From Gammaproteobacteria bacterium (lineage in GTDB: Bacteria > Pseudomonadota > Gammaproteobacteria > Steroidobacterales > Rariloculaceae): a stretch of DNA of 64,000 bases. Below are positions 17,949 to 49,553 of this stretch, in pieces; the stretch's first letter is position 1; every line of letters starts with the position of its first letter. The stretch spans positions 13,832 through 77,831 of the forward strand of contig DASZSB010000194.1 in NCBI GenBank assembly GCA_035548835.1. Reading direction: 5' to 3'. The notes beneath the pieces are model-generated. The model had not been told where the DNA came from. It made no database searches and saw nothing but the letters and a program-made list of their open reading frames with translations. A program made the translations under genes and the position numbers.

Positions 17949-17950
17949 GT

Positions 17951-18012: not shown

Positions 18013-18104
18013 CCCGTCCCTTCGCCGGTACTAACCGGATCAGGTTCAAAGGGTTGATCGACGCATGCCGCCGATCTCTCAGGCCGTTGCCGGCCACCCC
18101 TCGG
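18013..18104 (-). promoter_or_regulatory. TPP (THI-box) riboswitch aptamer
   Basis: The minus-strand RNA reads CCGAGGGGUGGCCGGCAACGGCCUGAGAGAUCGG...CAACCCUUUGAACCUGAUCCGGUUAGUACCGGCGAAGGGACGGG. It contains the conserved GGGGUG, CUGAGA, ACCC..UGAACCUGAUC.GGUUA.UACC.GCG.AGGGA core. A possible -10 element (TATGAT, 18119-18124 minus) lies just upstream. Confidence 0.85.
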
Positions 18105-18159
18105 TCCTAAGCGCCGCCATCATATTTCAGCTGCGGTGGGGACGCTACCGTTCGTTGCA

Positions 18160-22145: not shown

Positions 22146-22384
22146 GTGGATCAACGCCTTAGGGTTAGGTCATGAACCCGTATGCCGATGTGCTGCGGGT
22201 ATAGTAACCTACGCGCCAAGAACGAACCGAATCCCGGCCCGGTCGGCCGCGGAATCGGCATTCTGGCAAACGAGCTGCTCGCACCCCGCGTCGCGTGGGG
22301 GCCCAACCCGGCGAAAGACCGGGGCTCATGCCGCGCTCTGGCGCGGGGGCGGCCAAACGGAGTTGCAGGCGGAGGCGCAGGATC

Positions 22385-32019: not shown

Positions 32020-32173
32020 GGTGTGATTCAGCCCAATCATCCCCGATTCATGCTGCGCATCCGCGCCGGCGAAAACAAGCGGTTTCACCGTCGGCATTCG
32101 CAGACATCGCGGCGCGCGGCAGCCCCGCCCGGCGCCTTGACCCACGGCAGCGGCTCTGCAAAGGTTCCGGCTC

Positions 32174-33730
32174 ATGCACGCCCAGCGTTACGTCAACGCC
32201 GCCTTCGCCGCCTCGCTCGTAGTGTTCGCCGCCTGCACGATCAATCCGGTGACGGGCAACCGCGAGCTCGCGCTGATCTCGGCGGATCAGGAGATCGCGA
32301 TCGGCCAGGAGCAGTACGCGCCGTCGCAGCAGATGCAGGGCGGCGACTACTCGCTCGATCCTGCGCTCACGGCCTACGTGCGCGGCGTGGGCGCGAAGCT
32401 CGCGGCCGTCAGCGACCGCTCGCTGCCGTACGAATTCGTGGTGCTGAACAACTCGGTGCCGAACGCCTGGGCGCTGCCCGGCGGCAAGATCGCCGTGAAC
32501 CGCGGCCTGCTGACGGAGCTCAACTCCGAGGCCGAGCTCGCGGCCGTGCTGGGCCACGAGATCGTGCACGCGGCCGCGCGCCACGGTGCCATTGCCATGC
32601 AGCGCGGCCTGCTGCTCGGCGTGGTGGTCTCCGGCGTGCAGGTCGCCGCGCGCGGCGGCAACTTCGCCGGACTCGCCGTCGGCGCGGCCAGCGTGGGCGC
32701 GCAGCTGATCTCGCAGCGCAACAGCCGCGAGAACGAGCTCGAGGCGGACCAGTACGGCATGCAGTACATGGCGCGCGCGGGCTACGACCCGAGCGCCGCG
32801 GTCGCGCTGCAGGAGACCTTCGTGCGGATCTCGCAGCAATCCGGCGGCGAGCAGGGCCGCCTCGCGGCGCTGTTCGCGAGCCATCCGCCCTCCACGGAGC
32901 GCGTGGAGAAGAACCGCGCCACGGCCGCGACGCTGCCGAAGGGCGGCGACGTGGGCCGCGAGCGCTATCAGGCCGCCACCGCCGCTCTGCGCCAGCGGCA
33001 GCCGGCCTACGACGCCTACGACAAGGGCCGCGCGGCGCTCGCGGACAACAAACCGGCCGACGCCGAACGCTTCGCACAGGAAGCCGTGCGACTGCTGCCC
33101 GCGGAAGCGCAGTTCCACGCGCTGCAGGGCGACATCGCGCTGCAGCAGAAGCGCTACGACGAAGCCGTGCGCCACTACGGCGACGCCGTCGCCCGCAACG
33201 ATCGTTTCTTCTACTACCACCTGCAGAAGGGCATCGCGCACCGGCAGCTGCGTCAGTGGGACCCGGCGCGCACCGAGCTCGAACGCAGCGTGCAGCTGCT
33301 GCCGACCGCAGAGGGCTACTACGCGCTCGGCGTCGTCGCCGAGCAGCGCGGCGATCGGGCGGCGGCGCTCGAGCACTACGCGCGCGCGGCGCAATCGTCG
33401 GGCGCCGCGGGCCAGGCGGCGCAGGAGGCGGCCGTGCGACTCGACCTGCCGGCGAACCCCGGCAAGTACCTGGCGGCGCGGGGGACTCTGGACAGCAACG
33501 GCCAGCTGATCGTCGAAGTCGGCAACCCCACGCACATGGCGGTGACGGACGTGGTCGTCAGGGTGCGCTACGCCGACGCGCAGGGCACGATTCGCGAGCA
33601 GAGCCGCACGCTCGCGGGCCCGCTGCCAGCGGGTCAGACGCAGCGGCTGGCGACGGGGCTCGGGCCCTTCGCGCCGACCGCCACGCTCGAGGTCACGGTG
33701 ACGGCGGCCAGGCTGCCGCAGAGCCCGTAG
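32174..33730 (+). CDS. M48-family zinc metalloprotease with TPR repeats (BepA/YfgC-like lipoprotein)
   Basis: It has a lipobox (VFAAC) and an HEXXH motif in AAVLGHEIVHAAARHG. TPR-like repeats occupy the C-terminal half. Confidence 0.85.
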   Translation: MHAQRYVNAAFAASLVVFAACTINPVTGNRELALISADQEIAIGQEQYAPSQQMQGGDYSLDPALTAYVRGVGAKLAAVSDRSLPYEFVVLNNSVPNAWALPGGKIAVNRGLLTELNSEAELAAVLGHEIVHAAARHGAIAMQRGLLLGVVVSGVQVAARGGNFAGLAVGAASVGAQLISQRNSRENELEADQYGMQYMARAGYDPSAAVALQETFVRISQQSGGEQGRLAALFASHPPSTERVEKNRATAATLPKGGDVGRERYQAATAALRQRQPAYDAYDKGRAALADNKPADAERFAQEAVRLLPAEAQFHALQGDIALQQKRYDEAVRHYGDAVARNDRFFYYHLQKGIAHRQLRQWDPARTELERSVQLLPTAEGYYALGVVAEQRGDRAAALEHYARAAQSSGAAGQAAQEAAVRLDLPANPGKYLAARGTLDSNGQLIVEVGNPTHMAVTDVVVRVRYADAQGTIREQSRTLAGPLPAGQTQRLATGLGPFAPTATLEVTVTAARLPQSP

Positions 33731-34976: not shown

Positions 34977-36176
34977 GTGACCGAAGTCGCCGAAGCAGAA
35001 GCCCTGATCCTGGCCCACATGCCCCGGTTCGCGGCCCGCGAAGAGCCGCTGGCCGCCTGCGTGGACCGCGTGCTGGCGGAGGACATTGCGGCCGAGCGCG
35101 ACCAGCCGCCGTTCGACCGGGTGACCATGGACGGCATCGCCGTGGCCTTCCGTGAGTGGCAGGACGGCCGCCGGAAGTTCACGGTGGCCGGCACCCAGCC
35201 GGCCGGCGCGCCGCCCATGGCGGTGACCGGGCCCGGCCAGTGCGTGGAAGTCATGACAGGCACTGCCCTGCCGCAGGGCACCGACACCGTGATCCCGGTG
35301 GAGCGCATTACGCGCACGGGACCCGCGGCCGAAGTCGGCGCAGACGCCGTCGTCAAAGAGAATCAGTTCGTGCACCGGCGCGGCAGCGACCGTCTGGCCG
35401 GCGCTCCGGTGCTGCGCGCCGGCACGCGCCTCGGCCCGCCCGAGATCGCCGTGCTGGCTGGAGCCGGCCGCGCCACCGCCCGGGTGACCGAGCTGCCGCG
35501 GGTCGCCGTGATCTCCACGGGCGACGAGCTCGTCGACGCCGGCAAGCCCATCGCGGCCCACCAGATCCGCTCCACGAACGACCGCGCGATCGAGGCCAGC
35601 CTCGCGCGGCACCGGCTCGGCACGGTCACGCGCGCGCGGCTGCGCGACGACGCCAATGCGCTCGCGGTCGCCATCGACCGGCTCGATACCGAGCTCGACG
35701 CGCTCGTGCTGAGCGGCGGCGTGTCGATGGGTCAGTTCGACTTCGTGCCGTCGGTGCTGGAGGAGCTCGGCGCGAAGCTCGTGCTGCACAAGATCGAGCA
35801 GCGGCCGGGGCGGCCGATGTGGTTCGGCGTCAGCGCGCGCAGCAAGCCGATCTTCGCGCTGCCGGGCAATCCCGTGTCCACGCTCGTGTGCGCCACGCGC
35901 TATCTGCTGCCGGCACTGCGGGCGGCCTCCGGTCTCGCGCCAGCGCCGCCGGAGCTCGTGGAGCTCGCGGCCCCCGTCGAGGCGTCGCCGACGCTGACGA
36001 TGTTCGTTCCCGTGACGCTCTCGTGGTCCAAGCGCGGGGCCGCGCTCGCGCAGCCGCATCCGACGAACACGTCGGGCGACTTCGTGACACTGGCCGGCAC
36101 GGAGGGATTCGTGGAGCTCGCCGCGAAGCGCGGCAGCTACGCCGCGGGCACCGTGGCGCGTCTCTTCCGCTGGTGA
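34977..36176 (+). CDS. moeA: molybdopterin molybdotransferase
   Basis: PPFDRVTMDGIAV, VISTGDELV, LSGGVSMGQFDFV and FALPGNPVS are MoeA signature motifs. It starts at a GTG. Confidence 0.9.
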   Translation: MTEVAEAEALILAHMPRFAAREEPLAACVDRVLAEDIAAERDQPPFDRVTMDGIAVAFREWQDGRRKFTVAGTQPAGAPPMAVTGPGQCVEVMTGTALPQGTDTVIPVERITRTGPAAEVGADAVVKENQFVHRRGSDRLAGAPVLRAGTRLGPPEIAVLAGAGRATARVTELPRVAVISTGDELVDAGKPIAAHQIRSTNDRAIEASLARHRLGTVTRARLRDDANALAVAIDRLDTELDALVLSGGVSMGQFDFVPSVLEELGAKLVLHKIEQRPGRPMWFGVSARSKPIFALPGNPVSTLVCATRYLLPALRAASGLAPAPPELVELAAPVEASPTLTMFVPVTLSWSKRGAALAQPHPTNTSGDFVTLAGTEGFVELAAKRGSYAAGTVARLFRW

Positions 36177-36183: not shown

Positions 36184-37320
36184 CTAGAACCAGAACGACA
36201 CGAACAGCTGGAAGACGTCCGCGTCGAAGCTGTACAACGGCTCGGTGCCGGCGGCGACCCCACGCGTGCGCAGGTCGCGGAAATCCTTGTAGTCGAACAT
36301 CATGTGATCGAGGATCACGTTCAACGTGCCTTTGTCGATGAACTTCCAGCCGCTGCGCACGATGTCGTAGGTTGCGCCGAGGCTCAGCGACTGGCTCGTG
36401 AACGTGCTGAGCTCCTTGTCGCGCGCGAGGAAATTCTGATAGTTCACGCGCGGGAACAGATCGCTGTAGAAATCGCCCTTGGTCTGCGAGTAGTTGCGGA
36501 TCTTGCCTTCGAACGTCCAGTGATCGACGGGGTGCGTATACCCGATCTCGAAGGTCCCGCTCTTCACGCCCCAGGTGTCGTGATAGTCGCGATACTCGGC
36601 CGACAGCGCGGCGCGATACGGCAGGAAATAGCGCATGCGCAGCGCGGCGGCGTCGCTCGTATGCGTGCGCGGATAGATTTCGCGCTGGTAGCTGTAGCCG
36701 AGCGGACTGCCCGGGTCGGCGTAACGCACCTGCCGGTACGGGTTGTTCAGAAAACCTTCGTCCGTGATCGTCTCGAACGAGAGGCCCACGAGCAGGTTCT
36801 TCGTCAGGATCTGCGAGACGCCGAGCCGGTAGCTCTGCGTCTTGACGGTGTCGTGGAACGTGGGATCGCCGCGACGACGCACCTCGTTGTTGCCGAGCGA
36901 ATACCCCAGCGAGATCGTCGTCAGATCGCCGAACACGTCCTGGCTCACGCCGAACGTGAACGTGTTCGCCGTGTAGTCGTTCTCGACGCTGTTGATGACG
37001 CCGATGTTCATCGTCCAGCGGTCGTGCAGGTAATCGAGCCCGATCGACTTCTGCGTGCGCTCTTCCTTGTATGGGCTCGCCGTCGTGATGACGTCGATGG
37101 ACGCGCTCGACACCTGGTCGACGTAGTAGTTGGCCGAGACCGAGAACTTCTGCGCGAACTGCTTGCGAACGAGCACCGAGGGGCCCTGGATCGTCACGCC
37201 GCCGCCGTCGTAGCGGTGCATCAGCACGTCGATGCGGTCCTCCGGCAGCACGCCGGCCACGCCGGCACGTGCGACCGCCATGAGCACCAGACCGAAGACG
37301 ACTCCGCGTATCACGTGCAC
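36184..37320 (-). CDS. DUF3570-like outer-membrane beta-barrel protein
   Basis: It shows an alternating beta-strand pattern and a terminal aromatic residue (FVSFWF). YDGGGVTIQGPSVLVRK... resembles DUF3570. It is paired with a DUF4266-like gene 1 nt upstream. The GTG start at 37320 is uncertain. Confidence 0.7.
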   Translation of the reverse strand: MHVIRGVVFGLVLMAVARAGVAGVLPEDRIDVLMHRYDGGGVTIQGPSVLVRKQFAQKFSVSANYYVDQVSSASIDVITTASPYKEERTQKSIGLDYLHDRWTMNIGVINSVENDYTANTFTFGVSQDVFGDLTTISLGYSLGNNEVRRRGDPTFHDTVKTQSYRLGVSQILTKNLLVGLSFETITDEGFLNNPYRQVRYADPGSPLGYSYQREIYPRTHTSDAAALRMRYFLPYRAALSAEYRDYHDTWGVKSGTFEIGYTHPVDHWTFEGKIRNYSQTKGDFYSDLFPRVNYQNFLARDKELSTFTSQSLSLGATYDIVRSGWKFIDKGTLNVILDHMMFDYKDFRDLRTRGVAAGTEPLYSFDADVFQLFVSFWF

Positions 37321-37321
37321 C

Positions 37322-37567
37322 TCAGTTGCAGCCGCAGCCGCCGCCCGCGCCGCCGGTCGCGCCACGGGCGCCTTCGCGCGCGTCGTGAACGTGATCGATG
37401 TACGAGCTCGACACCGGATTGCGGTCGAGCGACATGATCGGGTCGGCCATGTGATCGCGCTCGTAGGGCTTCACCCAGGGCTCGATGCTGCAACCGCCGA
37501 GCACGCCGCAAGCCAGCGCCGCCAGAGCGACGCCCGCACCCGCACGACGAACGTGGAGCATGGACAT
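37322..37567 (-). CDS. DUF4266-like small lipoprotein
   Basis: The 81 aa product has a lipobox (VLGGC) and the characteristic C-terminal GGGCGCN that I associate with DUF4266. Confidence 0.7.
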   Translation of the reverse strand: MSMLHVRRAGAGVALAALACGVLGGCSIEPWVKPYERDHMADPIMSLDRNPVSSSYIDHVHDAREGARGATGGAGGGCGCN

Positions 37568-37572: not shown

Positions 37573-38064
37573 TCACTCGCGCAGCAGCGCGCGAACCTCG
37601 TTCTGGTAATCGCCCTCGTACCCCGGCTTGTAGCCGTGATGCAGGTAGCGCATCGTGCCGTCCTTCGCGACGATCACGGTGCTCGGCATCGTTTCCACCT
37701 TGTAGAGCTTGCTGACCTCGCTCTTCGTGTCGAACAGCACGGGGAACGACACCGGGGTTTCCTTCAGCCACTTCCGGGCGCCCTCGGGGTTGTCCTCGAC
37801 GTTCACGGCCAGCAGCTTGAAGCCGAGCTTGTTGTAGCGCTGATAGAGCGCCTCGAGATGCGGCATCTCCTGCCGGCACGGGACGCACCACGTGGCCCAG
37901 AAGTTGATCATCACGACATCGCCCTTCAGCGAGCCGAGCGATACGTTGCCGCCGTCGCGCGACGGCAGCGTGAATCCGGGTGCCGGCCCCTTGACCGAGT
38001 CCGCCGCGAAGGCCAGCGACGCCAGGAGAGCACTCACGACGATGACCGAAAACGCTCGCAACAT
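37573..38064 (-). CDS. TlpA-family periplasmic thiol-disulfide oxidoreductase
   Basis: It has a signal peptide and the thioredoxin-fold active site INFWATWCVPCRQEMP. The ATG is preceded by GGAGG. Confidence 0.85.
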   Translation of the reverse strand: MLRAFSVIVVSALLASLAFAADSVKGPAPGFTLPSRDGGNVSLGSLKGDVVMINFWATWCVPCRQEMPHLEALYQRYNKLGFKLLAVNVEDNPEGARKWLKETPVSFPVLFDTKSEVSKLYKVETMPSTVIVAKDGTMRYLHHGYKPGYEGDYQNEVRALLRE

Positions 38065-38088: not shown

Positions 38089-38748
38089 CTAGAAGAAGAA
38101 CGTCACGCCGAGGTGGGCGCCCAGGTTGTGGGACGTCTTGGCCTGGCCCAGCAAGTCGGTGTCGAATATCTGGTCCTCGACGTCGGCATGAACCGCAAGC
38201 CAGTCGAGCGGCATGATCCGGTAGCCGAGCCCTATGTTCATGGTGAACCGGTCATCCCCCGCGAACTTGGTCTTGCCGACGCCGCCGATCAGATACGTCG
38301 CGGTGTTCCACGCGCGCTTCTTACCGAAAAACCCTTCGCCGGGCAGGATGTCGTACCCCACCGAGACGTTATAGTAGGTGTAGTCGCGCTCGGCATCTGT
38401 GAGCAACTGCGCAGCGCCGCTCAGGCGCTCGAAGCTGGTCAGGCCGGCCGTCGTGCGGCCCGCTCCGAGCTGCACGAACACCTTGTCCGTGACGTGATAC
38501 GCGAACGTGGCGCCGGTCGCGTTGTGGACGCCGAAGTCCTCGATGCTGAGGCTGCCCGCGAACACGCCGACCTCGAAGTCCGATTTCTTGATCTTCGGAA
38601 CCTTGATCTCGCGGCGCTCGACGTCGGGCTCGATCACGGGCGGCTGGCCGTTGTCGTCGCTGCGCACGAGCCTGTCGCGGCCACAGCCGCTCAAGACGCC
38701 GACGGCGAGCGTCAACGTCAGAAGAAGAACGACACTCCTGCCTTCCAT
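38089..38748 (-). CDS. outer-membrane beta-barrel lipoprotein
   Basis: It has a lipobox (VLSGC), alternating strands and a C-terminal GVTFFF. Confidence 0.65.
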   Translation of the reverse strand: MEGRSVVLLLTLTLAVGVLSGCGRDRLVRSDDNGQPPVIEPDVERREIKVPKIKKSDFEVGVFAGSLSIEDFGVHNATGATFAYHVTDKVFVQLGAGRTTAGLTSFERLSGAAQLLTDAERDYTYYNVSVGYDILPGEGFFGKKRAWNTATYLIGGVGKTKFAGDDRFTMNIGLGYRIMPLDWLAVHADVEDQIFDTDLLGQAKTSHNLGAHLGVTFFF

Positions 38749-39461
38749 TCTCGTATGTCCTCGTTTTCATTGCGGCTCGTGAACACGACGTGCGCCTTGT
38801 ACTCGGCGCGGAACACGAACCGGCGCGAGAGGTACATGCGCATGCCTGCACCTACCAGCGCGAGCGAATCCGTGCGATCGACCGTGGCGACCAGCGTCGC
38901 CTTCGGATGCGTGGTGATGACCCCGGCGCCGAGCGTGAAGTACGGCGATATGCGCCAGTCGGGATACATCAGATGAACGATGTTGATGGTCGCGAGCTTG
39001 CTGTCGGCGAACTGGCCGATGGCCTCCGACACCCAGATCTCGCCCGAGAGATTCGGCGTGAATCCGTGCGCGCCGTAGGCGGCGATCACGTTCGCGCCGC
39101 CGAAGTCGCCATACAGCGCGCCGACCTCCCAGCGCCGCGCGGCGTACTCCTCGAGACCCGGCTCGGGCAGGTCGAACGGCTCGCCGTTCAGATTCAGCGT
39201 GGTCTTCAGCTGGTCGCGATGCACCCACCCCACCTGGCCGCGCGGCACACGCACCTTGAACCAGTCCGTGCGCTGCATCAGCAGCGCGATCTGCTCGCCC
39301 CGCTCCGCGACGAAGAAGATCGGATAACCCGCTCCGGGACCCGTGTGCAGATCGATGTACGGGTCGTCGATCACGACCTCCCTGTACTGCCGTTCCGCGC
39401 CTGCTGCAGTAGCTGCGACGAAAAGCTGGCATAGCGCGAGAACGAGCCACCATCGACGCAT
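38718..39461 (-). CDS. SH3b-like domain fused to an outer-membrane beta-barrel
   Basis: After a signal peptide comes an SH3-like segment (LHTGPGAGYPIFFVAERGEQIALLMQRTDWFKVRVPRGQVGWVHRDQL), then barrel strands ending in GVSFFF. The start lies directly after the upstream stop. Confidence 0.65.
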   Translation of the reverse strand: MRRWWLVLALCQLFVAATAAGAERQYREVVIDDPYIDLHTGPGAGYPIFFVAERGEQIALLMQRTDWFKVRVPRGQVGWVHRDQLKTTLNLNGEPFDLPEPGLEEYAARRWEVGALYGDFGGANVIAAYGAHGFTPNLSGEIWVSEAIGQFADSKLATINIVHLMYPDWRISPYFTLGAGVITTHPKATLVATVDRTDSLALVGAGMRMYLSRRFVFRAEYKAHVVFTSRNENEDIREWKAGVSFFF

Positions 39462-42134
39462 CTACATCACCGGAGCCTTGAACGGGTCGTTGTAGTACTG
39501 GGCACCGATGTCGAGCCACTCCGCGATCAGGCGCAGCTCGTCCTGGGTCATGAAGCCCCTGTGCGGCTCGTTCGGACAACCCGTGCCGCCCGCGTCGAAG
39601 CAGCCGAAGAAGCGCGACGCACGCGCACCGGCCGAGCTCATCGGCGGCGAGATCGAGACGGGCGCCATGATCGGATTGCCCATCGCGTCGACACCGATCT
39701 GCACCTGCTGATCCACGACGGCGCCGTTCATGAGCACCTGCTGGTTGTCGGCGAACAGCAGCTCGCGGTAGGCGTTGAACTGGTCGGGCTCGTCGGCCGA
39801 GAGCCCGTCGGACAGGTCGAGCTGGCCGGCGGGCACCATCGGCTGGTTTGCCGCATCCACGGGCGCGTGGCAGCCGCCCTGCGAGCAGGTGTGGTCCTCG
39901 AGCACGGTCATCGTCATCGGGTCGATCACCTGCCGCGGCGTGCTCCACAGCGGGTGGATGTGCGTCTCGTAGTTGATCTCGATGCGGCACGACGGCGCCC
40001 ACTTCGTGATGCAGTTCGTGCTCACGGGCGCGGGCGTCGTCAGATTGGTATACAGATACGAGAACGACGTGGCCGGCGTGGCGACCGCGGAATCCGTCCA
40101 CACGTCCGTGTACTTCAGGTCGACGCTCGGAATCAGCGCGGCACAGTCCGTCTGGCAACTCACGCGCGTGCGCGTCTCGGCCATCGTGTCGCCCGCATCC
40201 GGCGAGAACGCCGGGACGCTGTTCTGGAACGGCACGCCCGTGCCCGTGGCACCCGGGTACACCGAATTGAACGCGTCGCTGCGGCCGTGCGACAGCCCGC
40301 TCTGCGCGTCGTGACAGCCGTTGCACTTCAGCTCCTGGCCGGGCACCACCTGCAGCCAGTTCTGGTGGCGTGCCGAGATCCGGCGGCCGTTCGCGTCGAG
40401 CACGCTGACGGCGAGCGCCACGTTCGCGGGCACTTTCACGCGCACCGAGCCGTCCGGCTCGATCGGGGCGTAGCCGATGATCTCGCGCATGCCCTGCTGG
40501 ATGTTCGGGCCGAAGGCCGTGGGGCGAATGTTCACGTCCTGCGGATCCGGGATCGCTACGGCCTTCTCGACGCGCAGGAAGCGCGCCGGCCGGTTGGCGA
40601 CCGGCGTCTTCACCGGATCGGCGGTATCGGCGATGTTCACGGACGCCATGCCGTCGATGTCGTAGACGCTGCGGATGTTCAGGATGCCCACGCCTTCGGC
40701 AACGAGCTTCGAGTCGAAGTCGACGCCGGCCACCTTGTCCGGGATCGACTGCGGATTCGCGCGCGGCTGCGCCGCCACCACGTCGCCGATCAGCACGCCT
40801 TCCTCGCCCGTGACGATCGGCAGCTGCGTCTGCGTCTGCGGGTCGTACATCCAGATGCCGTAGAGCGGCGGCGCAACGACCGGGTTCGCCGCGGCCAGCT
40901 TGTCATCCGTGCACGGCACGAAGATCGTCTTCGTCGCGTCGTTCGGATCGGGCTCGGCGAGCCGGCAGATCTCCCAGCTCACGAGCACGCGGCCGGTGCC
41001 GTCCCACAGTGGGAACGCGGAGCTGTAGCGCCCGCCCTTCGACGGCAGCAGGTCCGTTCGCACCTGATTCGGCGTGGCCGGCGTCTGCGCGGGGCCCGTC
41101 ATGCCCGGGGAGCTCGCGACGGACTGCGTGTTCTCCACGTACGTCTTCGTATCGATGACCGCGACCGCGCCGCCGAGCTCCGGATGATCGAAGGGCCGGA
41201 CGATCGCCATGACGCGGCCGTCCGGCATCTCGCGCGGATCGAGGAACTGCACCTGCGTGTTGTCCGTGCCGGTCAGGTGACTGTGCGCGCCGTACACCAG
41301 CTCGAGATCCGTGCCGTCCGGGTTCATCTGATAGAGGTTGATGCCGTTGACGCTGCCGGCGTGGTCCCAGCGGCTGAACAGCACCTTGCCGTTCGCGAGC
41401 ACGATCGGATCGTAGTCGTTGCTTTGGTTGAACGAGATCTGATGCAGATCGCTGCCGTCGTCGCGCATCACGTGCAGCACGAACGCGGGATTGCGACGGT
41501 TCTCGTCGCGCGCGTCGAACTGCGGCTTGCCCTCGTCGAGCAGCACGGCCTTCGCCTGGCGCTGCCGGGTGGAGACGAACAGGATGCGGCCGTCGGGCAG
41601 GTAGTGGGGCGAGATGTCCTGCCCCGCTTCCGCCGTGATGTCGGACGCGATGATGCGATGCAACGTATCGGTAGCGAACGTGTACTCCCAGATGTTCCAC
41701 GTCGGCTGTTCGTCCATGGTCTTGTTCGGGTCGAACGGCCCGCGCATCGCGAACAGCACTTTCTTGCCGTCCGTGGAGATCTCCACGCCCATGACATCGC
41801 CCTGCCCCTGCGTCTCGCGCAGCGTCACGTTGCGCTCGGGCGCCGTGGGCGATGCCCGGTCGCGCACATAGAGGTCGGTGCCGACGTTGAATCGCAGCAC
41901 GTCGCGCACGTCCGTCGGCGACTGGACCTGCATCTGATCGTCGAACAGCGGGCCCTTCGTATAGGCGATCGCGAAATCCGGTGCGACGGGGTCCGGCTGC
42001 TGACCGCTCCCGACACCGAGGTTGCCGTCACTGTTGCCGCATGCAGCGAGCACGAACACCGTGATCGTCACGAGCGCGAGCTGCACTCCCGTGCGCAGGC
42101 GCCCGATCATGACAGTCCCTGTCCGATGGCTCAT
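39462..42134 (-). CDS. large TolB/PD40-like beta-propeller lipoprotein with C-terminal heme-c motifs (possibly HzsA-related)
   Basis: It has a lipobox (VLAAC) and propeller-like repeats (ISTDGKKVLFAM, PHYLPDGRILFVS, VLANGKVLFSRW, MNPDGTDLELVY). CNGCH and CSQGGCH motifs occur in the C-terminal third. The ATG at 42134 is preceded by GGAGAGGGA. Confidence 0.75.
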   Translation of the reverse strand: MSHRTGTVMIGRLRTGVQLALVTITVFVLAACGNSDGNLGVGSGQQPDPVAPDFAIAYTKGPLFDDQMQVQSPTDVRDVLRFNVGTDLYVRDRASPTAPERNVTLRETQGQGDVMGVEISTDGKKVLFAMRGPFDPNKTMDEQPTWNIWEYTFATDTLHRIIASDITAEAGQDISPHYLPDGRILFVSTRQRQAKAVLLDEGKPQFDARDENRRNPAFVLHVMRDDGSDLHQISFNQSNDYDPIVLANGKVLFSRWDHAGSVNGINLYQMNPDGTDLELVYGAHSHLTGTDNTQVQFLDPREMPDGRVMAIVRPFDHPELGGAVAVIDTKTYVENTQSVASSPGMTGPAQTPATPNQVRTDLLPSKGGRYSSAFPLWDGTGRVLVSWEICRLAEPDPNDATKTIFVPCTDDKLAAANPVVAPPLYGIWMYDPQTQTQLPIVTGEEGVLIGDVVAAQPRANPQSIPDKVAGVDFDSKLVAEGVGILNIRSVYDIDGMASVNIADTADPVKTPVANRPARFLRVEKAVAIPDPQDVNIRPTAFGPNIQQGMREIIGYAPIEPDGSVRVKVPANVALAVSVLDANGRRISARHQNWLQVVPGQELKCNGCHDAQSGLSHGRSDAFNSVYPGATGTGVPFQNSVPAFSPDAGDTMAETRTRVSCQTDCAALIPSVDLKYTDVWTDSAVATPATSFSYLYTNLTTPAPVSTNCITKWAPSCRIEINYETHIHPLWSTPRQVIDPMTMTVLEDHTCSQGGCHAPVDAANQPMVPAGQLDLSDGLSADEPDQFNAYRELLFADNQQVLMNGAVVDQQVQIGVDAMGNPIMAPVSISPPMSSAGARASRFFGCFDAGGTGCPNEPHRGFMTQDELRLIAEWLDIGAQYYNDPFKAPVM

Positions 42135-42638
42135 GGAACGTCCCTCTCCATCCATTGATCCCGAATGGAGGTTCGCTTCCGGGCTCCGTGCGTCAGTCAA
42201 CGGTTCACTCCGCGCAGTGCGCGGCACGCGCGTCCCGCGCGTGCCGTGCGTTTGCATAATGTCCGGGCCACCGGCCCGCGATGCGACGTAATGTCGGCGC
42301 CCCGTAATCATGGGCATCGACCTTGTCGCCTTCCGTTAACGTGATCACAGAACCATCCCGGATCGAACCTGCATCAAAACTGTGACCGATCTCTCCGAAC
42401 GATCGATCGGTACCCCAGATCATCGCGAACGACTTCACTAAACACTCGCGCGTCGTCGCGTCGCACACGCGCTGCGTGCTCTCAATCACCGCGGGGAGCT
42501 TACACGCCGGTTACGGTGCTTCCGAAACCGTCGCCGTTTTGAGACGTCTGTGATTTCCCACATTACCCGGCGGTTTTTTTTGTGTTTTTATTCGGCTCGC
42601 ATTGCGGCAGTGACATCAACACAACGGGACGAATCGTG

Positions 42639-43841
42639 ATGACTAGCAGGATGCATTGGATGTCGACGCTGAGCACGTTCAGCAGCCATCGCTCGATGTG
42701 GCGGTTGTTCATCGCAGTCGGGCTCGTCGTCTGCGGACTCTCGGTCGCGCTCGCCGGACCGCGCGAGCAGGCGGCCCGGATTCACGACCGGTTGGCCGGC
42801 GTGCCCGCGAGCGACGCCGTGCTGACGCAGATGGCGGCGCAACTGCCCGGCAATCCGACCGCGGCAGCGAACATCGCGATGCAGAACCCCAATTTCTACT
42901 CGGTCACGCTGAAGAACTTCGCGGCGCCATGGACGAACCGCGACCGGTCGGCGTTCGTGCCGCTGAACGACTACGTCACGCTCGTGATGGGCATGGTGCG
43001 CGACAACGTGCCGTTCGATCAGATCCTGTCGGGCGACCTGCTGTACGTCGCACCCGGGGTGTCGCCGGCGCCCTCACCGAGCAACAACGACCACTTCGCC
43101 GCACTCGAGGCGCGGATGCGCGATCCCGCGTTCAACCAGAGCGAGCTCTCGCAGACCACGCAGTCGGCCACGTACGGCATTCCACCGGCGGCCACCGCGG
43201 GCGCGATCACGACGCGCGCCGCGTCGGAGGCGTTCTTCGTGGCAGGCACGAACCGCGCGATGTTCCGCTTCACGCTGATCAACCATCTCTGCATGGACAT
43301 GGAGCAGGTGCTCGATACGAGCGTCACGCCGGACAACGTCCGTCAGGACGTCTCGCGCAGCCCGGGCGGCGACAGTCGTGTGTTCATGAACAACTGCATA
43401 GGCTGCCACGCAGGCATGGACCCGCTGGCGCGTGCGTTCGCGTACTACGACTACGACACCACGGCCGGCCGTCTGGTGTACACGCCGGGCACGGTGCAGG
43501 CGAAGTACTTCAACAACAACAAGACGTTCCCCGACGGCTTCATCACGCCCGACGATTCGTGGAACAACCACTGGCGGCAGGGGCAGAACGCCCTGATCGG
43601 CTGGAACCCGGCGCTGCCGGGCCAGGGCCAGGGCGCGAAGTCGCTCGGTCAGGAGCTCGCCGGCACGACCGCGTTCGCGCAGTGCCAGGTCAAGAAGGTG
43701 TTCAAGGCGGTCTGCTTCCGCGATCCGGTCGATCAGGCCGATCGCAATCAGGTCGCCACGATGACCACGAGCTTCCGCAACAACAACTTCAACCTGCGAC
43801 AGGTCTTCGCCGAGTCCGCAGGGTATTGCATGGGCCAGTAG
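42639..43841 (+). CDS. exported mono-heme protein with planctomycete PSD/DUF1585-DUF1588-like motif
   Basis: It has a signal-peptide-like segment (MWRLFIAVGLVVCGLSVALA) and NNCIGCHAGMDPLARAFAYYDY, a CXXCH followed by DP. The start is uncertain: ATG at 42639, 42651 or 42660, with AGGA before the last. Confidence 0.7.
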   Translation: MTSRMHWMSTLSTFSSHRSMWRLFIAVGLVVCGLSVALAGPREQAARIHDRLAGVPASDAVLTQMAAQLPGNPTAAANIAMQNPNFYSVTLKNFAAPWTNRDRSAFVPLNDYVTLVMGMVRDNVPFDQILSGDLLYVAPGVSPAPSPSNNDHFAALEARMRDPAFNQSELSQTTQSATYGIPPAATAGAITTRAASEAFFVAGTNRAMFRFTLINHLCMDMEQVLDTSVTPDNVRQDVSRSPGGDSRVFMNNCIGCHAGMDPLARAFAYYDYDTTAGRLVYTPGTVQAKYFNNNKTFPDGFITPDDSWNNHWRQGQNALIGWNPALPGQGQGAKSLGQELAGTTAFAQCQVKKVFKAVCFRDPVDQADRNQVATMTTSFRNNNFNLRQVFAESAGYCMGQ

Positions 43842-43865
43842 GCCCGCGGCCAGGGAGTCAGGACG

Positions 43866-46466
43866 ATGCAGTACGCAATCTCCATCACCGGCACGTCGCT
43901 CGCGCGCGTGACGAATCGTCTCCGCGTGCCGCACGCGCGGCTGGTCGCGACCGGCGTCGCGCTGGTCGCCGCGCTGCTCGCAGGCTGCAGCGGCGGCAGT
44001 GGCGCGCCGGTCGAGGTCACGCCCGGCGCCGGCAGCGGGCCCGTGACGCAGACCTACACGGGCCCCGCGCCCACCACGGCCGACGTGCAGTCGTTCAAGA
44101 TCAATCTGTGGGACAACATCCACGCCGATAACCGCTGCGGTACGTGCCACAGCGAGAAAGGCGGTCAGGTGCCGATGTTCGCCCGCGGCGACGACGTGAA
44201 CCTGGCCTACGCGGCCGCGAACCTCGTCGTGAACCTCGCCTCCCCGAAGGACTCCATGATGGTCCAGAAGGTCGGCGGCGGTCACAACTGCTGGCTCGCG
44301 AGCCCCGCGGCCTGCGCGGACATCCTGACGACGTGGATCACGAACTGGGCGGGCGCGACCGCCGGCGGCGGCAGCCGCAAGATCCAGCTCGAGCCGCCCG
44401 TGATCCGCGACCCCGGCACGAGCAAGAACTTCCCGGACGACCAGGGACTGCTGTACTCCCAGACGGTCTACCAGATCACGTCGAAGTTCTGCTCGAACTG
44501 CCACAGCTCGAGCTCGTCGCTGAAACAGCAGCCGTTCTTCGCGGAAGGCCCGACCACCAGCGCGACCGCCATTCAGGCGGCGTACGAGGCCGCCAAGCCG
44601 AAGATGGATCTCGACGATCCGGCGAACTCGCGGTTCGTGCTGCGGCTGCGTAACGAGTCGCACAACTGCTGGACCTCGAGCTGCGCGAACGACGCCAACG
44701 CGATGCAGGCCGCGATCACGCAGTTCGCCTCCGGCATCACACCGACCACGGTCGACCCGAACCTCGTCACGAGCAAGGCCACGACGTTGTACGAAGGCAC
44801 GATCGCGTCCGGCGGCAGCCGCTACGACGCGAACGTGATCGCCATGTACGAGTTCAAGACCGGCCAGACCTGCGGCACGTCGATCACGGGCGCCTGCGCC
44901 ACCGCGTACGACACCAGCGGCGTCGACCCGGCCATGGATCTGACGCTGTCGGGCAACGTGCAGTGGTTCGGCGGCTGGGGCCTGAACTTCTCGGGCGGCA
45001 AGGCGCAGGCCTCCACGGCCGCCAGCGCGAAGCTGAAGCGCCTGATCAACGCCACGGGCGAATACTCGATCGAGGCGTGGGTCACGCCCGGCAACGTGGT
45101 GCAGGAGGACATGCGCATCGTGAGCTACTCGGGTGGCCTCATGCAGCGCAATTTCAACCTCGGCCAGACGATGTACAACTACGACTTCTTCAACCGTTCG
45201 GACAAATCGGACGCCAACGGCAACCCGCAGCTGTCGACGCCGGACGCCGCCGAGGTGCTCCAGGCCTCCCTGCAGCATGTCGTCGCCACGTTCGACCCGG
45301 CAAACGGCCGCAAGATCTATGTGAACGGCGTGCTCGTGGCCTCCATGGATCCGGTGCCGGGCGGCCTGCTGAACGACTGGGACGACACTTTCGCGTTCGT
45401 GCTCGGCAACGAGGTGTCCGGCACGCGCATGTGGAACGGCGTGATCCGTTTCGTCGCGATCCACAACCGGGCTCTCACGCCCGCACAGATCCAGCAGAAC
45501 TTCCAGGCCGGCGTCGGCGAGAAGTTCTTCCTGATGTTCAGCGTGGAGCACCTGACGAACGTGCCCGAGAGCTTCGTGGTCTTCGAGGCCTCGCAGTTCG
45601 ACAGCTACAGCTACCTGTTCCGCAAGCCTTTCTTCATCAGTCTCGACGGGACACAGCATCCTGACGCGCTCGACGTGAAGGGCCTGCGCATCGGCATCAA
45701 CGGTGCCGAGGCGCACGTCGGCCAGTCGTTCGCGAACCTCGACACGCAGATCAGCAGCTCGCTGTACAGCACCGAGACCGGCCAGACGCTGCTCGATCTC
45801 GGCGCCGTCGTGCCGCTCGAGAAGGGGCCGGACTCCGACGAGTTCTTCCTGACCTTCGACAAGCTCGCGGCGCACAGCTTCAGCCGGCCGCCCCCGGCGA
45901 CTCCGCCGGCTCCGACTCCGGTGGATCTGCCGCCCGCGTCGGCGATCGGCGTGCGCACGTTCGACGAGATCAGCGCCACGATGGCCGCGATCACCGGCGT
46001 GAGCCAGCGCGATACGCAGGTCGCCAACACGTTCGCAACCGTGCGCCAGTCGCTGCCCGCCGATGCGGACATCCAGGCCATCCTGGCGTCGCACCAGGTG
46101 GCAATCGCGCAGCTCGCGATCGGCTACTGCGACGCGCTCATGGAAAACCGCAGCACGACGATCGCGCGTGACACGATGTTCCAGGGATTCAACTTCGGCG
46201 CAACTCCGGCCGTCGCGTTCGCCAACGAGAACGCGCTGTTCAATCCATTGCTCGACCGCGTGCTCGGCGTCACGCAGCTCGCCAGCCAGCCGAACAGGGC
46301 CGCCGTGCAGCAGGAGCTCGACCAGCTCGTGAACGGCATTCCCGGCGACAGCACGCGGCCCGGCCTGCTGAATTCCGGCACGACCAACGACGCTGCGCGG
46401 ACGCGCAACATCGCCAAGGCGGTGTGCTCGGCCGTGATCGGCAGCGCCGCAATGCTGGTTCAGTAA
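43866..46466 (+). CDS. di-heme LamG-domain lipoprotein
   Basis: It has a lipobox (LLAGC), the heme motifs CGTCH and CSNCH, and a central LamG/concanavalin-like segment (GEYSIEAWVTPG...HVVATFDPANGRKIYVNGVLV...WNGVIRFVAIHNRALTPAQIQQNF). SD-like GGGAG and AGGA elements precede the ATG. Confidence 0.75.
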   Translation: MQYAISITGTSLARVTNRLRVPHARLVATGVALVAALLAGCSGGSGAPVEVTPGAGSGPVTQTYTGPAPTTADVQSFKINLWDNIHADNRCGTCHSEKGGQVPMFARGDDVNLAYAAANLVVNLASPKDSMMVQKVGGGHNCWLASPAACADILTTWITNWAGATAGGGSRKIQLEPPVIRDPGTSKNFPDDQGLLYSQTVYQITSKFCSNCHSSSSSLKQQPFFAEGPTTSATAIQAAYEAAKPKMDLDDPANSRFVLRLRNESHNCWTSSCANDANAMQAAITQFASGITPTTVDPNLVTSKATTLYEGTIASGGSRYDANVIAMYEFKTGQTCGTSITGACATAYDTSGVDPAMDLTLSGNVQWFGGWGLNFSGGKAQASTAASAKLKRLINATGEYSIEAWVTPGNVVQEDMRIVSYSGGLMQRNFNLGQTMYNYDFFNRSDKSDANGNPQLSTPDAAEVLQASLQHVVATFDPANGRKIYVNGVLVASMDPVPGGLLNDWDDTFAFVLGNEVSGTRMWNGVIRFVAIHNRALTPAQIQQNFQAGVGEKFFLMFSVEHLTNVPESFVVFEASQFDSYSYLFRKPFFISLDGTQHPDALDVKGLRIGINGAEAHVGQSFANLDTQISSSLYSTETGQTLLDLGAVVPLEKGPDSDEFFLTFDKLAAHSFSRPPPATPPAPTPVDLPPASAIGVRTFDEISATMAAITGVSQRDTQVANTFATVRQSLPADADIQAILASHQVAIAQLAIGYCDALMENRSTTIARDTMFQGFNFGATPAVAFANENALFNPLLDRVLGVTQLASQPNRAAVQQELDQLVNGIPGDSTRPGLLNSGTTNDAARTRNIAKAVCSAVIGSAAMLVQ

Positions 46467-46494
46467 TTCGCGCCTTGAGATAGAGGGTACACCC

Positions 46495-48111
46495 ATGCTG
46501 ATCCGAGTGAAGAACAAGCCGCGCAACCCCAACGAGCCGCTCCACGGCGGACGGCTGACGCGCCGTCAGCTGATCGGCCAGGGGTTATTGGCGGGTTCGG
46601 CCACGCTGCTGACGGGCGGATTCCTGGGCTTGTTCGCGAACCCGCGCGCGGCCTACGCCGCGCTCGCGAACGATCTGAAGCCGCTGACTCAGGCCTGCGG
46701 CATCAGCAACGGCGCGGGCAAGATTCCGTTCATCTGCTTCGACCTCGCGGGCGGCGGCAACATCGCCGGCTCGAACGTGCTGGTTGGCAAGGCCGGCGGG
46801 CAGCTGGATCTGCTCGGCACCGCGGGCTACAGCAAGCTCGGCATTCCAGGCGACCAGGTACCGGGCGTCACGGAGGCCGCGCGCACGGCCACGAGCAACG
46901 GCGACCACACGGACACGACGCTCGGCCTCGCGTTCCACAGCGACAGCGCCTATCTGCGCGGCATGCTGAGCCGCATGAGCACGACGACGCGCGCGAACGT
47001 CAACGGCGTGGTGATTCCGGCGCGCTCGGAGAACGACACGAGCAACAACCCGCACAATCCGCTGTACGCGATCCGCAAGGCGGGCGCGGACGGCTCGATC
47101 CTGACGCTGTGCGGCTCCCAGAACTCGGTGTCGGGCGGCAACTCGATGGCGCCGCTCGCGATGATCGATCCGACGGCACAGCCGACGAAAGTGGACCGTC
47201 CGAGCGACGTCACGGGCCTCGTCGACACGGGCCAGCTCGTGGGCCTGCTGAACGCATCGGACGCAACGGCGGTGCTCGAGTCGATCTACCGCATCAGCCG
47301 CGAGCGCATGAACAACGCCGTGAGCACCGGCCTGCCGATCACGCAGGACGAAGTGGTCAAGGATCTCGTGAACTGCGGCTACCTCAAGTCGGCGGACGTG
47401 GCCGACCGTTTCGGCAACGTGATTCTCGACCCGGGCCTCGACCCGGACATCGTCGGCGCGGCGGGCATCTTCTCGACGGCCGAGTGGAACAGCGGCGGCA
47501 CCGACCAGACCGAGTTCCGCAAGACGGCGTCCATCATGAAGCTGGTGGTCGAAGGCTTCGCGGGCGCCGGCGTCATCACGATGGGTGGCTACGACTACCA
47601 CAACGGCAACCGCATGGACGGCGAGGTCAGGGACGAGCGCGCCGGCAAGTGCATGGGTGCGTGCCTCGAGTTCGCCGCGCGCAGGGGCGTGCCGCTGATG
47701 ATGTACGTGTTCAGCGACGGCGCGATCTCGAGCAACGGCGCCATCGACAACTCGGTGAACGGCCGCGGCAAGGGCCAGTGGACCAGCGACAACCAGGACA
47801 CGGCTTCGCCGTTCTTCCTGGTCTACAAGCCCGGCGGCCGACCGACGATCTACACGGCGGATGGCGGCGCCCCGGCCGTTCACCAGCAGCTCGGCTCGTT
47901 CGCCGCGACCGGCGACGTCGTGCGCTCGGGCACTCCGGGCGCCAACAACGTGAATCTGCTGGTCGAGCAGGTGGTGCTGAACTACATGGCGCTGCATGGA
48001 CAGCAGGGCCAGTTCGCGAACGTGTTTCCGAACAACGGCCTGGGCTCGAACATCGATCGCCTGATCGGGCTCGCGCCGATCGTGAACAACGTGATCACGA
48101 ACCCGGTCTAG
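46495..48111 (+). CDS. Tat-exported protein resembling the DUF1501/DUF1552 (alkaline-phosphatase-superfamily-like) families
   Basis: It has a twin-arginine signal (GGRLTRRQLIGQGLLAGSATLL...AYA). ICFDLAGGGN and ITMGGYDYHNGN are reminiscent of the GG.D.H metal-site motif of DUF1501. GAGGG precedes the ATG. Confidence 0.7.
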   Translation: MLIRVKNKPRNPNEPLHGGRLTRRQLIGQGLLAGSATLLTGGFLGLFANPRAAYAALANDLKPLTQACGISNGAGKIPFICFDLAGGGNIAGSNVLVGKAGGQLDLLGTAGYSKLGIPGDQVPGVTEAARTATSNGDHTDTTLGLAFHSDSAYLRGMLSRMSTTTRANVNGVVIPARSENDTSNNPHNPLYAIRKAGADGSILTLCGSQNSVSGGNSMAPLAMIDPTAQPTKVDRPSDVTGLVDTGQLVGLLNASDATAVLESIYRISRERMNNAVSTGLPITQDEVVKDLVNCGYLKSADVADRFGNVILDPGLDPDIVGAAGIFSTAEWNSGGTDQTEFRKTASIMKLVVEGFAGAGVITMGGYDYHNGNRMDGEVRDERAGKCMGACLEFAARRGVPLMMYVFSDGAISSNGAIDNSVNGRGKGQWTSDNQDTASPFFLVYKPGGRPTIYTADGGAPAVHQQLGSFAATGDVVRSGTPGANNVNLLVEQVVLNYMALHGQQGQFANVFPNNGLGSNIDRLIGLAPIVNNVITNPV

Positions 48112-48165
48112 CGCAACGGCTTCGGAAGCGAGTTTCGGTTGTTCCTCTAGCGTGTGATCGCGGTT

Positions 48166-48202
48166 GCCCGGCCAGGGACGGCCGGGCCACCGCTCCTTTT
48201 TT
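48166..48202 (+). terminator. candidate rho-independent terminator of the 42639-48111 operon
   Basis: GCCCGGCC-AGGGAC-GGCCGGGC forms an 8 bp GC stem (48166-48187). A 9 nt spacer and TTTTTT (48197-48202) follow. The spacer is longer than ideal. Confidence 0.4.
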
Positions 48203-48316: not shown

Positions 48317-49351
48317 TCAGCGGGCGTGCAGCGTCGACTGCAGCTCGGCGAGGACCGACAGCGCGATCGACTCCGGCGAGTCCGCCCCGATGTCGAGGCC
48401 GACCGGCCCCTTGAGACGCGCGCGCAGCGGCGCAGCCGCGTCGCCGAGATCGGCCAGCAGCCGGTCGCGCCGCGCTCGCGGTCCGAGCACGCCGACGTAG
48501 CGATGCGTGTGCTGGGCGAGCTCGCCGAGATACTTGCGGTCGGTCGGCAGGTGGTGACTCATGACGACGACCGCATCGAACTCGGCCAGCGGCACCTCGC
48601 GCGCCACCTGCCCCGCCTCCACGAGCACCTTGCGGTCGGCGCGATCGAACCCCGGTCGCGCGACGTACGCCGGTCGATGATCGGCCACGGTCACGAACCA
48701 GCCGAGCTCCACGGCCATGCCGACCAGCGGCACGGCGTCGAGCCCGCCGCCGAGCACGAGCAGCCTCGGAATCGGGCGCAGGGGGGCGTGGAGCACGGTG
48801 GTACCACCCTCGGCGACGAGGCAGACCTGACCGTCCGCAGCGGCGCGCCGCGCACCGGCCACGATCGCCGCGGGCGCCGCCGCGGCGAACCCGAACGCGT
48901 CCGTCTTCTCGGCCGTCACGATCACGGTGCCCCCTGCGTCGGCGCCTTCGATCACCGTGGCGAGCCCGCCGCCGCGGCTGCCGCGCAGCAGCGTCGCGAT
49001 CGACTCGAACGGCTCGTATCCGCGCGCAGGCAGCAACGGCTGCAGGAACACCCGCAGCAGGCCATTGCAGCCGACGGCAAGCCCCCAGAGCTCGTCCGCC
49101 GCATCGCGCAGATCATAGGTGACGGCAGCCGGTCGATCGGCCGCGATGACCTGGCGGGCGCGCTCCGCGAGATCGCCCTCGAGGCACCCGCCGCTGACGA
49201 GCCCGCGATAGTCGCCGCTCCCGGCAATCAGGATGCGATGGCCCGCCTTGGTGTAGGTCGAGCCGAGCGTGTCGTAGACCGTGGCGAGCACCAGCGGCTC
49301 GCCGGCGGTCCGCCACGCTTCGAAAGACTGCAGGATCTGCCGAGCGCTCAT
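48317..49351 (-). CDS. XdhC/CoxI-family molybdoenzyme maturation protein
   Basis: LVLATVYDTLGSTYTKAGHRILIAGSGDYRGLVSGGCLE and the Rossmann-like LLVLGGGLDAVPL match the family. I placed the start at MSARQIL (49351). Confidence 0.8.
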   Translation of the reverse strand: MSARQILQSFEAWRTAGEPLVLATVYDTLGSTYTKAGHRILIAGSGDYRGLVSGGCLEGDLAERARQVIAADRPAAVTYDLRDAADELWGLAVGCNGLLRVFLQPLLPARGYEPFESIATLLRGSRGGGLATVIEGADAGGTVIVTAEKTDAFGFAAAAPAAIVAGARRAAADGQVCLVAEGGTTVLHAPLRPIPRLLVLGGGLDAVPLVGMAVELGWFVTVADHRPAYVARPGFDRADRKVLVEAGQVAREVPLAEFDAVVVMSHHLPTDRKYLGELAQHTHRYVGVLGPRARRDRLLADLGDAAAPLRARLKGPVGLDIGADSPESIALSVLAELQSTLHAR

Positions 49352-49553
49352 GCGTGCGAGGACCCATCTTCGGGGCGGCCAATATGCCAGCGGCGAAGCC
49401 CGCTTGCACCCCGGCACGGAGGGCTACCCCCTCCGGAGCATCCGGACATAATGCCCCGCACGCTGGCTGGCCGGGTCAACGCCTGACCCGCACCGTCAGT
49501 CCGAGTGGACATAAAGGCCGCGCACACGTACTGCCGGCGCGGCCGTCGATGGG

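Follow-up and report, generated by a model that had tools for sequence, protein, structure and literature searches.

We analyzed a 64,000-nt window of DNA (assembly GCA_035548835.1, contig DASZSB010000194.1) from a gammaproteobacterium of the Rariloculaceae, and within it three consecutive plus-strand genes for exported proteins, here called g1, g2, and g3. Their open reading frames lie at 42639-43841 (g1, 400 amino acids), 43866-46466 (g2, 866 amino acids), and 46495-48111 (g3, 538 amino acids), and the open reading frame map reproduced the gaps of 24 nt (g1/g2) and 28 nt (g2/g3) that a preliminary description of the locus had given for these same-strand genes. An alternative start of g1 at 42660 yields a protein of 393 amino acids, which is the form in public gene calls. 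With third-position GC contents of 0.88-0.93, g1-g3 are typical of coding sequence for a genome of 67% GC. The Shine-Dalgarno sequences previously attributed to the second and third genes were located as GGGAG (43853-43857, 8 nt 5' of the ATG of g2) and AGAGGG (46482-46487, 7 nt 5' of the ATG of g3); for g1, GGGA is present at 42626-42629, 9 nt upstream of the start. An intrinsic-terminator-like hairpin with a T-run follows g3 at 48160-48202 on the plus strand. It had been placed at 48166-48202, and its stem extends from 48160: the hairpin covers 48160-48193 (inner stem 48166-48187), has a 13-bp interrupted stem with a free energy of -30 kcal/mol (z = -3.1 versus shuffles), and then runs into UCCUUUUUU, with TCCTTTTTT at 48194-48202 directly 3' of the hairpin. 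One internal mismatch in the stem made a simple terminator scanner pass over it. On these computational grounds g1-g2-g3 form one transcription unit, which this terminator-like element would close. No riboswitch was found with Rfam in or around the operon, and a tblastn search of g3 against plasmids gave no match.

The first protein, g1, carries a Sec signal peptide readable in its sequence (…LSVALA/GP) and a single CXXCH motif, CIGCH, at residues 253-257. The CIGCH, DPLA, and YDY elements noted earlier are all present; however, DPLA does not directly follow CIGCH, as had been stated, but begins three residues later and is followed by ..AFAYYDY. In a family alignment of 40 homologues (50-85% identity), C253, C256, and H257 were invariant. 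The window protein itself gave only sub-threshold similarity to PSD2 (PF07624; E 0.022, 14.9 bits, cut-off 25.8) and PSCyt3 (PF07627; E 0.061, 14.1 bits, cut-off 27). Across the family, PSD2 was matched in 36 of the 40 members (best E 1.5e-6), PSCyt3 in 29, and PSCyt2 in 7, with the PSD2/PSCyt3 similarity at the expected positions; PSD2 was also matched in distant g1-like partners, precomputed Pfam hits among them. Profile-profile alignment with hhalign gave no support for kinship of g1 to DUF1800 (probability 0.2%) or to PSCyt2/PSD1 proteins (probability 0.4%). Sequence comparison thus lends reasonable support to a kinship of g1 with the planctomycete PSD2/PSCyt3 proteins. The family is large, with at least 8000 homologues (clusters at 90% identity) among the matches listed, all of them unnamed and lacking a Pfam domain.

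The second protein, g2, has the layout of a large lipoprotein: a lipobox (LLAGC), two heme domains of the type CXXCH…HNCW, a Laminin_G_3 (LamG) domain at residues 390-543, a beta domain, and a C-terminal helical domain. The lipobox and the heme motifs CGTCH and CSNCH were found as first reported; Cys41 of the lipobox and both CXXCH sites are invariant in homologues, and a conserved H-N-C-W stands about 45 residues after each CXXCH. The LamG fold proposed for the center of the protein was borne out by a Laminin_G_3 match of 82.8 bits (cut-off 27.6, E 3.7e-23), which recurred in 42/42 homologues, and Cytochrome_CBB3-type matches were obtained in 35 of these 42. When g2 was aligned to PSCyt2/PSD1 proteins (hhalign, probability 52%, P 1.5e-4), confident columns were confined to the N-terminal heme domain. 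This domain appears PSCyt1-like, and kinship of g2 to the planctomycete modules is moderately supported. Between them, g1 and g2 would therefore hold three c-type hemes, one and two respectively, judging from conserved CXXCH motifs in exported proteins.

The third protein, g3, bears the twin-arginine signal LTRRQLIG and the motif GGYDYH, both as anticipated. A set of 68 diverse full-length family members (29-54% identity) showed as invariant the RR pair, G86 G87, D181, D367-Y-H369, D408 G409, D432, and Q465. In the N-terminal region of the twin-arginine translocation (Tat) signal, upstream of RR, Pro15 and His17 are (nearly) invariant even at 30% identity, and such conservation (residues 15-24) is unusual for a signal peptide. 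No match of g3 was obtained in Pfam, NCBIfam, or PDB sequences even at E = 10, and no relevant Pfam family was matched at E <= 1 by any of the 68 members. The family is nonetheless abundant: a word-indexed search returned at least 7990 homologues among the 8000 best candidates scored, with at least 8000 clusters at 90% identity, and an exhaustive HMMER search over 1.84 billion representatives gave 1410 clusters at E <= 0.001 (50% identity clusters, about 1400). These homologues are unnamed save for stray 'GspF' labels, such as the NCBI name 'general secretion pathway protein GspF' on homologues P0117 and P0249; nothing in the sequence speaks for that name, which looks like a propagated misannotation.

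With thousands of homologues for each protein, the motif conservation in the trio is far beyond chance. When PDB sequences were searched with the three proteins and with profiles of their families, only Tat-signal or LamG noise came back, and NCBIfam gave nothing useful for any of the three. The preliminary description had assigned them no function, and profile and structure searches placed none of the three in a characterized pathway. By computation, their three export routes (Sec, lipoprotein, and Tat) converge on the periplasm.

Conservation of gene order was examined with the g3 alignment as query against one genome per GTDB species. A g3 relative is encoded at no fewer than 577 loci, of which the best 80 were analyzed. 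All 80 are gammaproteobacterial, with hosts that include Woeseiaceae, Steroidobacteraceae, Chromatiales-type metagenome-assembled genomes, Paraglaciecola, Aliiglaciecola, Alteromonas, Microbulbifer, Lentisalinibacter, Porticoccus, Corallincola, Permianibacter, and Sedimenticola, and in all 80 the g3 motif reads GGYDYH or GGFDYH. Wherever at least 3.9 kb of upstream sequence was available, g1, g2, and g3 occurred in this order on the same strand (63/63 loci). The preliminary description had made its reading depend on the trio being a conserved unit, and such a unit it is. That the three genes stand together by chance, without forming a functional unit, is refuted by this synteny and by the continued linkage of the components in distant loci of other gene order; nothing turned up in favor of such a chance arrangement, and we regard it as negligible.

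The distant loci, from metagenomic lineages of about 52% GC in which the g3 relative has about 30-40% identity, contain a four-gene set. First in the set comes the gene for a g1-like protein of about 500 amino acids with one CXXCH, then DP..AFAY, and weak PSD2 similarity; the second gene encodes a small lipoprotein whose counterpart in g2 is the homologous C-terminal domain; the third, a g3-like Tat protein; and the fourth, a lipoprotein homologous to the second heme domain and the post-LamG beta domain of g2. It follows from these split genes that the g2 of the window is a fused form of two modules that in other loci stand on either side of g3, to which a first heme domain and the LamG domain are added. 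That g2 splits and fuses in this way around g3 provides the strongest computational argument that the proteins physically work together.

Upstream of g1, and transcribed divergently from it, lies a six-gene operon on the minus strand, which the preliminary description had recognized as an outer-membrane operon; our analysis agreed, and no function was assigned to any of its genes. Nearest to g1 is the gene for a 951-amino-acid lipoprotein (39462-42317, a maximal open reading frame with a likely start near 42134 or 42110) that combines a PD40-type beta-propeller with an HZS_alpha middle domain (E 9.5e-14). Its two heme sites, CNGCH (CXXCH) and CX4CH, are conserved together with the lipobox Cys. 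Identification of this protein as a hydrazine synthase was rejected, the match being limited to 60 residues of the middle domain and to 50 bits against an NCBIfam equivalog cut-off of 800; a published paper on hydrazine-synthase homologues does not cover it. The operon continues with a protein of an SH3_3 domain and an outer-membrane beta-barrel ending in FFF (38718-39461), a 219-amino-acid lipoprotein of no family with a barrel-type C-terminus (…VTFFF; 38089-38748), a periplasmic thioredoxin-like protein of TlpA/AhpC-TSA type with a WCVPC motif (37573-38064; AhpC-TSA E 1.1e-30, 106.6 bits), a small DUF4266 lipoprotein ending in GGGCGCN (37322-37567; E 3.3e-22, 79.6 bits), and a DUF3570 outer-membrane protein (36184-37365; E 2.5e-35, 122.6 bits) with two flavinylation-like motifs, DxxSSAS and DxxTTAS. 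Three of these products have aromatic C-termini typical of outer-membrane barrels, and a reading of the lipoproteins of the unit showed no Asp at position +2, so that the whole system is probably located at the outer membrane.

In 52 loci the upstream sequence extended to about 10 kb; there, the genes for the heme beta-propeller protein, the SH3-barrel protein, and the 219-amino-acid protein were each present in 52/52, the DUF3570 gene in 51/52, and the thioredoxin-like gene, within the divergent operon, in 34/52. Judged by this synteny, the conserved unit is one of nine genes, the trio plus the six-gene divergent operon, rather than of three. In other loci the thioredoxin-like gene stands 3' of g3 on the same strand (L330, 7209-7715; L055, about 8126; L056, about 4030); its link to the trio survives rearrangement. 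The intergenic region between the two operons contains a conserved 21-bp element, CCGTTAACGTGATCACAGAAC, at 42333-42353, which is common to the window, loci L001 and L005, and ten Woeseiaceae-type loci. Its consensus is CCGTTAACG(C/T)GATCACA(A/G)AAC, with two adjacent palindromes, CGTTAACG and GTGATCAC, and about 17 nt upstream of it stands a GTG(G/A)AC box; the element may be an operator or an extracytoplasmic function (ECF)-type promoter. In Woeseiaceae-type loci (L011, L021, L039, L051, L064, L075) the divergent intergenic region measures 750-1000 nt, 2-3 times that of the window, and could hide a small gene or RNA.

DUF3570 is a substrate of ApbE (PMC8238504), and DUF3570, DUF4266, and thioredoxin-like genes have been proposed to form an extracytosolic electron-transfer module linked to ApbE and DsbD (PMC8238504, Méheust et al. 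2021). All three are clustered in the divergent operon, and its DUF4266 protein has the C-terminal CXC. The window differs from the published module in that the cluster contains neither ApbE nor DsbD, the thioredoxin matches AhpC-TSA/Redoxin, and the Gly of the flavinylation motif is replaced (SSAS/TTAS for [ST]GA[ST]). The window module is, moreover, joined to the heme beta-propeller lipoprotein and to the g1-g3 operon, a joining absent from that paper.

The composition of the nine genes also brings to mind a Sox-like carrier-cysteine pathway, in which the C-terminal Cys of DUF4266 would covalently bind an intermediate, such as a sulfur species, in an adduct that the cytochromes would form by oxidation; g3 would hydrolyze the product off, and the thioredoxin-like protein would reset the carrier. 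The GGGCGCN end resembles the GGCGG arm of SoxY, and a hydrolase-type fold, c-type cytochromes, and a thioredoxin occur together in the cluster. Many host lineages belong to sediment sulfur-cycling groups, such as Woeseiaceae and Sedimenticola, whereas heterotrophs, Alteromonas and Microbulbifer, carry the cluster as well. No sequence similarity to any Sox protein was detected with Pfam or NCBIfam, the DUF4266/DUF3570 module is widespread without g1-g3 (PMC8238504), and g1-g3-like sets exist without DUF4266. We consider such a pathway very unlikely.

The kind of system to which the trio seems to belong, a PSCyt/PSD cytochrome-like protein with a Tat-exported partner, has already been described and never explained. 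PSCyt1/PSCyt2/PSD1 proteins adjoin Tat-type DUF1501 proteins, often with Laminin_G_3, and have no known function (PMC3542564, Kamneva et al. 2012); PSCyt proteins often have a Laminin_G_3 insert (PMC3542564, PMC5615132), and PSCyt2 and PSCyt3 genes each adjoin a different family of unknown genes (PMC5615132). A literature search found no characterization of the DUF1501, DUF1552, or PSCyt/PSD families. Like g1, the PSCyt3/PSD2-PSD5 proteins of Planctomycetes and Verrucomicrobia (DUF1585/1587/1588/1592/1595) have a heme site and then a C-terminal PSD2, in the same order; a twin-arginine partner always adjoins, and the function is unknown in both systems. In contrast to these proteins, g1 of the window falls below the Pfam thresholds, is far shorter, and has no PSD3-5; the DUF1552 model gave no match to g3, the trio has extra lipoprotein cytochrome modules, and it is single-copy where the others are expanded to tens of copies. 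DUF1552 is, we assume, the partner family of the PSCyt3/PSD2-PSD5 proteins, and by this partner logic a DUF1552-type pair would be the nearer analogue of the trio.

The module of DUF1501 with PSCyt1/PSCyt2/PSD1 offers a second comparison. Here, too, the partner is Tat-exported and has a GG-aromatic-D-x-H motif with an acidic strand-end motif about 41 residues on, and the cytochrome partner often carries Laminin_G_3, as g2 does; the N-terminal heme domain of g2 aligns to the PSCyt2/PSD1 heme domain. The trio differs in spreading the cytochrome functions over two or three proteins, and it differs from the DUF1800 plus DUF1501 pair in the lack of similarity of g1 to DUF1800. The alignment of the g3 family to 72 diverse DUF1501 proteins with PSCyt2/PSD1 or DUF1800 neighbors, taken from a metagenome scan, was collinear from end to end: GGYDYH paired with GGWDTH and vfSDG with sEFGRT, with a spacing of 41 residues in both. 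With the Tat signal included, the hhalign probability was 44.8% (P 2.2e-4). Controls by block shuffling covered two shorter regions: the g3 core (residues 330-450) scored 24.5 (P 0.0058), its 40 shuffles reaching 21.8 at most, and both for the core and for the mature domain the score was above every shuffle. As for motifs, g3 possesses the Tat RR pair and a variant of the GG-W-D-T-H-type motif of DUF1501, with Y/F for W and Y for T.

A model of g3 built with AlphaFold2 on the 68 diverse sequences reached a predicted local distance difference test score (pLDDT) of 86.9 and a predicted template modeling score (pTM) of 0.85. In a Foldseek search against the PDB, all of the top 50 matches (50/50) were members of the alkaline phosphatase superfamily, among them sulfatases, alkaline phosphatases, cofactor-independent phosphoglycerate mutases, ENPP6, LtaS, EptC, MCR-1, and BcsG. 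No other fold class was returned. The invariant D83, D367/H369, D408, and D432 lie at the C-terminal ends of predicted strands, which is where this superfamily, to which NPP and EptA also belong, builds its metal site; S151 lies at the N-terminus of a helix, a place likewise expected for a Ser in these enzymes. The model therefore points, weakly, to an alpha/beta fold like that of this superfamily. Unlike its members, g3 has D-x-H in place of the DH dyad, lacks the CxPxR sulfatase motif, and has obligatory heme partners, and its resemblance to them reaches no significant sequence or structure score.

A fold class shared with phosphatases and sulfatases, acidic/His motifs that resemble hydrolytic metal sites, and the capacity of LamG domains to bind glycans would also suit an ordinary secreted phospho- or sulfo-esterase for nutrient scavenging, in which case the heme proteins would be scaffolds, sensors, or unrelated neighbors with no electron transfer to the site. 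Against this, co-inheritance of the heme partners has no exception and persists where genes have split or been rearranged, the thioredoxin-like gene accompanies the trio in differing arrangements, and no phosphate- or sulfate-regulon genes lie nearby; we find a plain hydrolase unlikely. The presence of LtaS, EptC, MCR-1, and BcsG among the Foldseek matches, and of three outer-membrane barrels and four lipoproteins among the products of the unit, raises a role in envelope modification or maintenance. In that case g3, in the manner of EptA, OpgB, BcsG, or LtaS, would transfer or remove a phospho-type substituent on a surface glycan, lipid, or outer-membrane component, while the redox proteins would regulate or mature components. 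TlpA/CcmG-type thioredoxins commonly serve in cytochrome maturation, and the one encoded here might serve only heme attachment to the five CXXCH-type sites. However, g3 is soluble where those transferases are membrane-anchored, the obligatory heme partners would be left unexplained, and no envelope-biogenesis genes are linked, which makes this role quite improbable.

Our overall interpretation, for which we see the case as evenly balanced, is that g1-g3 encode a periplasmic heme-wired metalloenzyme complex that represents a gammaproteobacterial branch, very distant and single-copy, of the planctomycete cytochrome/PSD plus Tat-partner modules. The three proteins would be subunits of one enzyme complex, probably tethered to the outer membrane. 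As the metal-dependent catalytic subunit, g3 would be folded in the cytoplasm and exported by Tat, with a metal site formed from D83, D367, H369, D408, and D432 and with S151 as the candidate nucleophile. Both g1, with one heme c, and g2, with two hemes c and a lipid anchor, would dock on g3, and the LamG domain of g2 may hold a glycan-like or polymeric substrate. The three hemes could relay electrons between the catalytic site and the neighboring outer-membrane redox module, that is, the divergent operon with its thioredoxin-like protein, DUF4266 CXC lipoprotein, flavinylatable DUF3570 barrel, and di-heme beta-propeller lipoprotein; through these components electrons would enter or leave. What we only infer in this scheme is that the proteins form a physical complex, which metal is bound, which way electrons flow, and what substrate and reaction are involved; any particular substrate would be named with confidence far short of an even balance.

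Several observations weigh against the heme-wired complex. The DUF1501 (PF07394) hidden Markov model did not match g3 at E <= 10, and neither it nor the DUF1552 model (PF07586) matched any of the 68 diverse relatives at E <= 1, when a bona fide DUF1501 protein used as a control scored 375 bits to the DUF1501 model. With the Tat signal removed, the profile match of the mature domain to DUF1501 was marginal (score 25.5, P 0.023, probability 2%; maximum of 21.2 in 20 block shuffles). None of the Foldseek matches was significant (best E 0.013, TM <= 0.23). We know of no redox-coupled enzyme in the alkaline phosphatase superfamily, which leaves the role of the hemes unexplained. No ApbE or DsbD was found among the 31 window proteins scanned, the flanks of the unit being MoeA and XdhC. 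Finally, the distant g3 loci do not have the DUF3570 operon, and the coupling to it is therefore lineage-specific.

Taken together, the fold, the GGxDxH motif, and the marginal profile match support only weakly a kinship of g3 to DUF1501-type Tat partners. The preliminary description had presented the trio as a variant of the pair of PSCyt and DUF1501/DUF1552 proteins; this stands reasonably well for g1 and moderately for g2, and for g3, which has no Pfam hit, only weakly. On the sequence evidence, the trio is probably best regarded as a proteobacterial version of such systems that is single-copy, strongly diverged, and partitioned in another way, and that is coupled to a second uncharacterized redox module.

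The nine-gene unit is surrounded by molybdenum-cofactor genes on either side: MoeA at 34977-36176 (+), an XdhC-type gene at 48317-49417 (-), and MoaA at 21087-22169 (-). A link to this cofactor was considered and rejected, as XdhC adjoins in only 3 of the 80 loci and g3 has no features of a molybdenum-cofactor protein. MoeA was detected in none of the 80 loci, although the flanking sequence retrieved stops at DUF3570, too short to include it. The nearness of these genes looks coincidental. In 35 of the 80 loci the gene directly 3' of g3 encodes a zinc-ribbon protein that is class I methyltransferase-like (L002, 5171-6574; also L329, 2648-4036), with weak CARME and Methyltransf_11 matches; this gene is not in the 64-kb window. 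Farther away, a thiamine pyrophosphate (TPP) riboswitch (18000-18111, minus strand, 73.8 bits) is located at the 5' end of a TonB-dependent receptor gene (15828-18119, minus strand), which suggests thiamine-regulated outer-membrane uptake. A 795-amino-acid protein encoded at 29800-32187 (-), next to glutaminyl-tRNA synthetase, has a GSDH (glucose/sorbosone dehydrogenase) domain and a large extra C-terminal region.

The trio is a good experimental entry point, neither a solved mechanism nor a categorically new one. Both g1 and g3 represent large families covered by no Pfam or NCBIfam model, and the nine-gene unit is a fixed feature of Gammaproteobacteria of ecological importance, among them the marine-sediment Woeseiaceae, the soil Steroidobacteraceae, and the marine Alteromonadaceae. 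It is possible, if rather doubtful, that the trio is the first tractable alkaline-phosphatase-fold enzyme wired to c-type hemes and fed by an outer-membrane thiol/flavin/heme conduit, and that the PSCyt/PSD plus DUF1501/DUF1552 modules so greatly expanded in Planctomycetes and Verrucomicrobia have in it a gammaproteobacterial counterpart present in one copy. If so, a heme-coupled enzyme of this fold would be new biochemistry and a new kind of extracytoplasmic redox enzymology. Should the remote planctomycete link hold, cultivable species would offer a single-copy system for a class of modules that was described from 2004-2012 onward and is still uncharacterized, and solving the trio in Alteromonas, Paraglaciecola, or Microbulbifer would explain a 20-year-old planctomycete puzzle.

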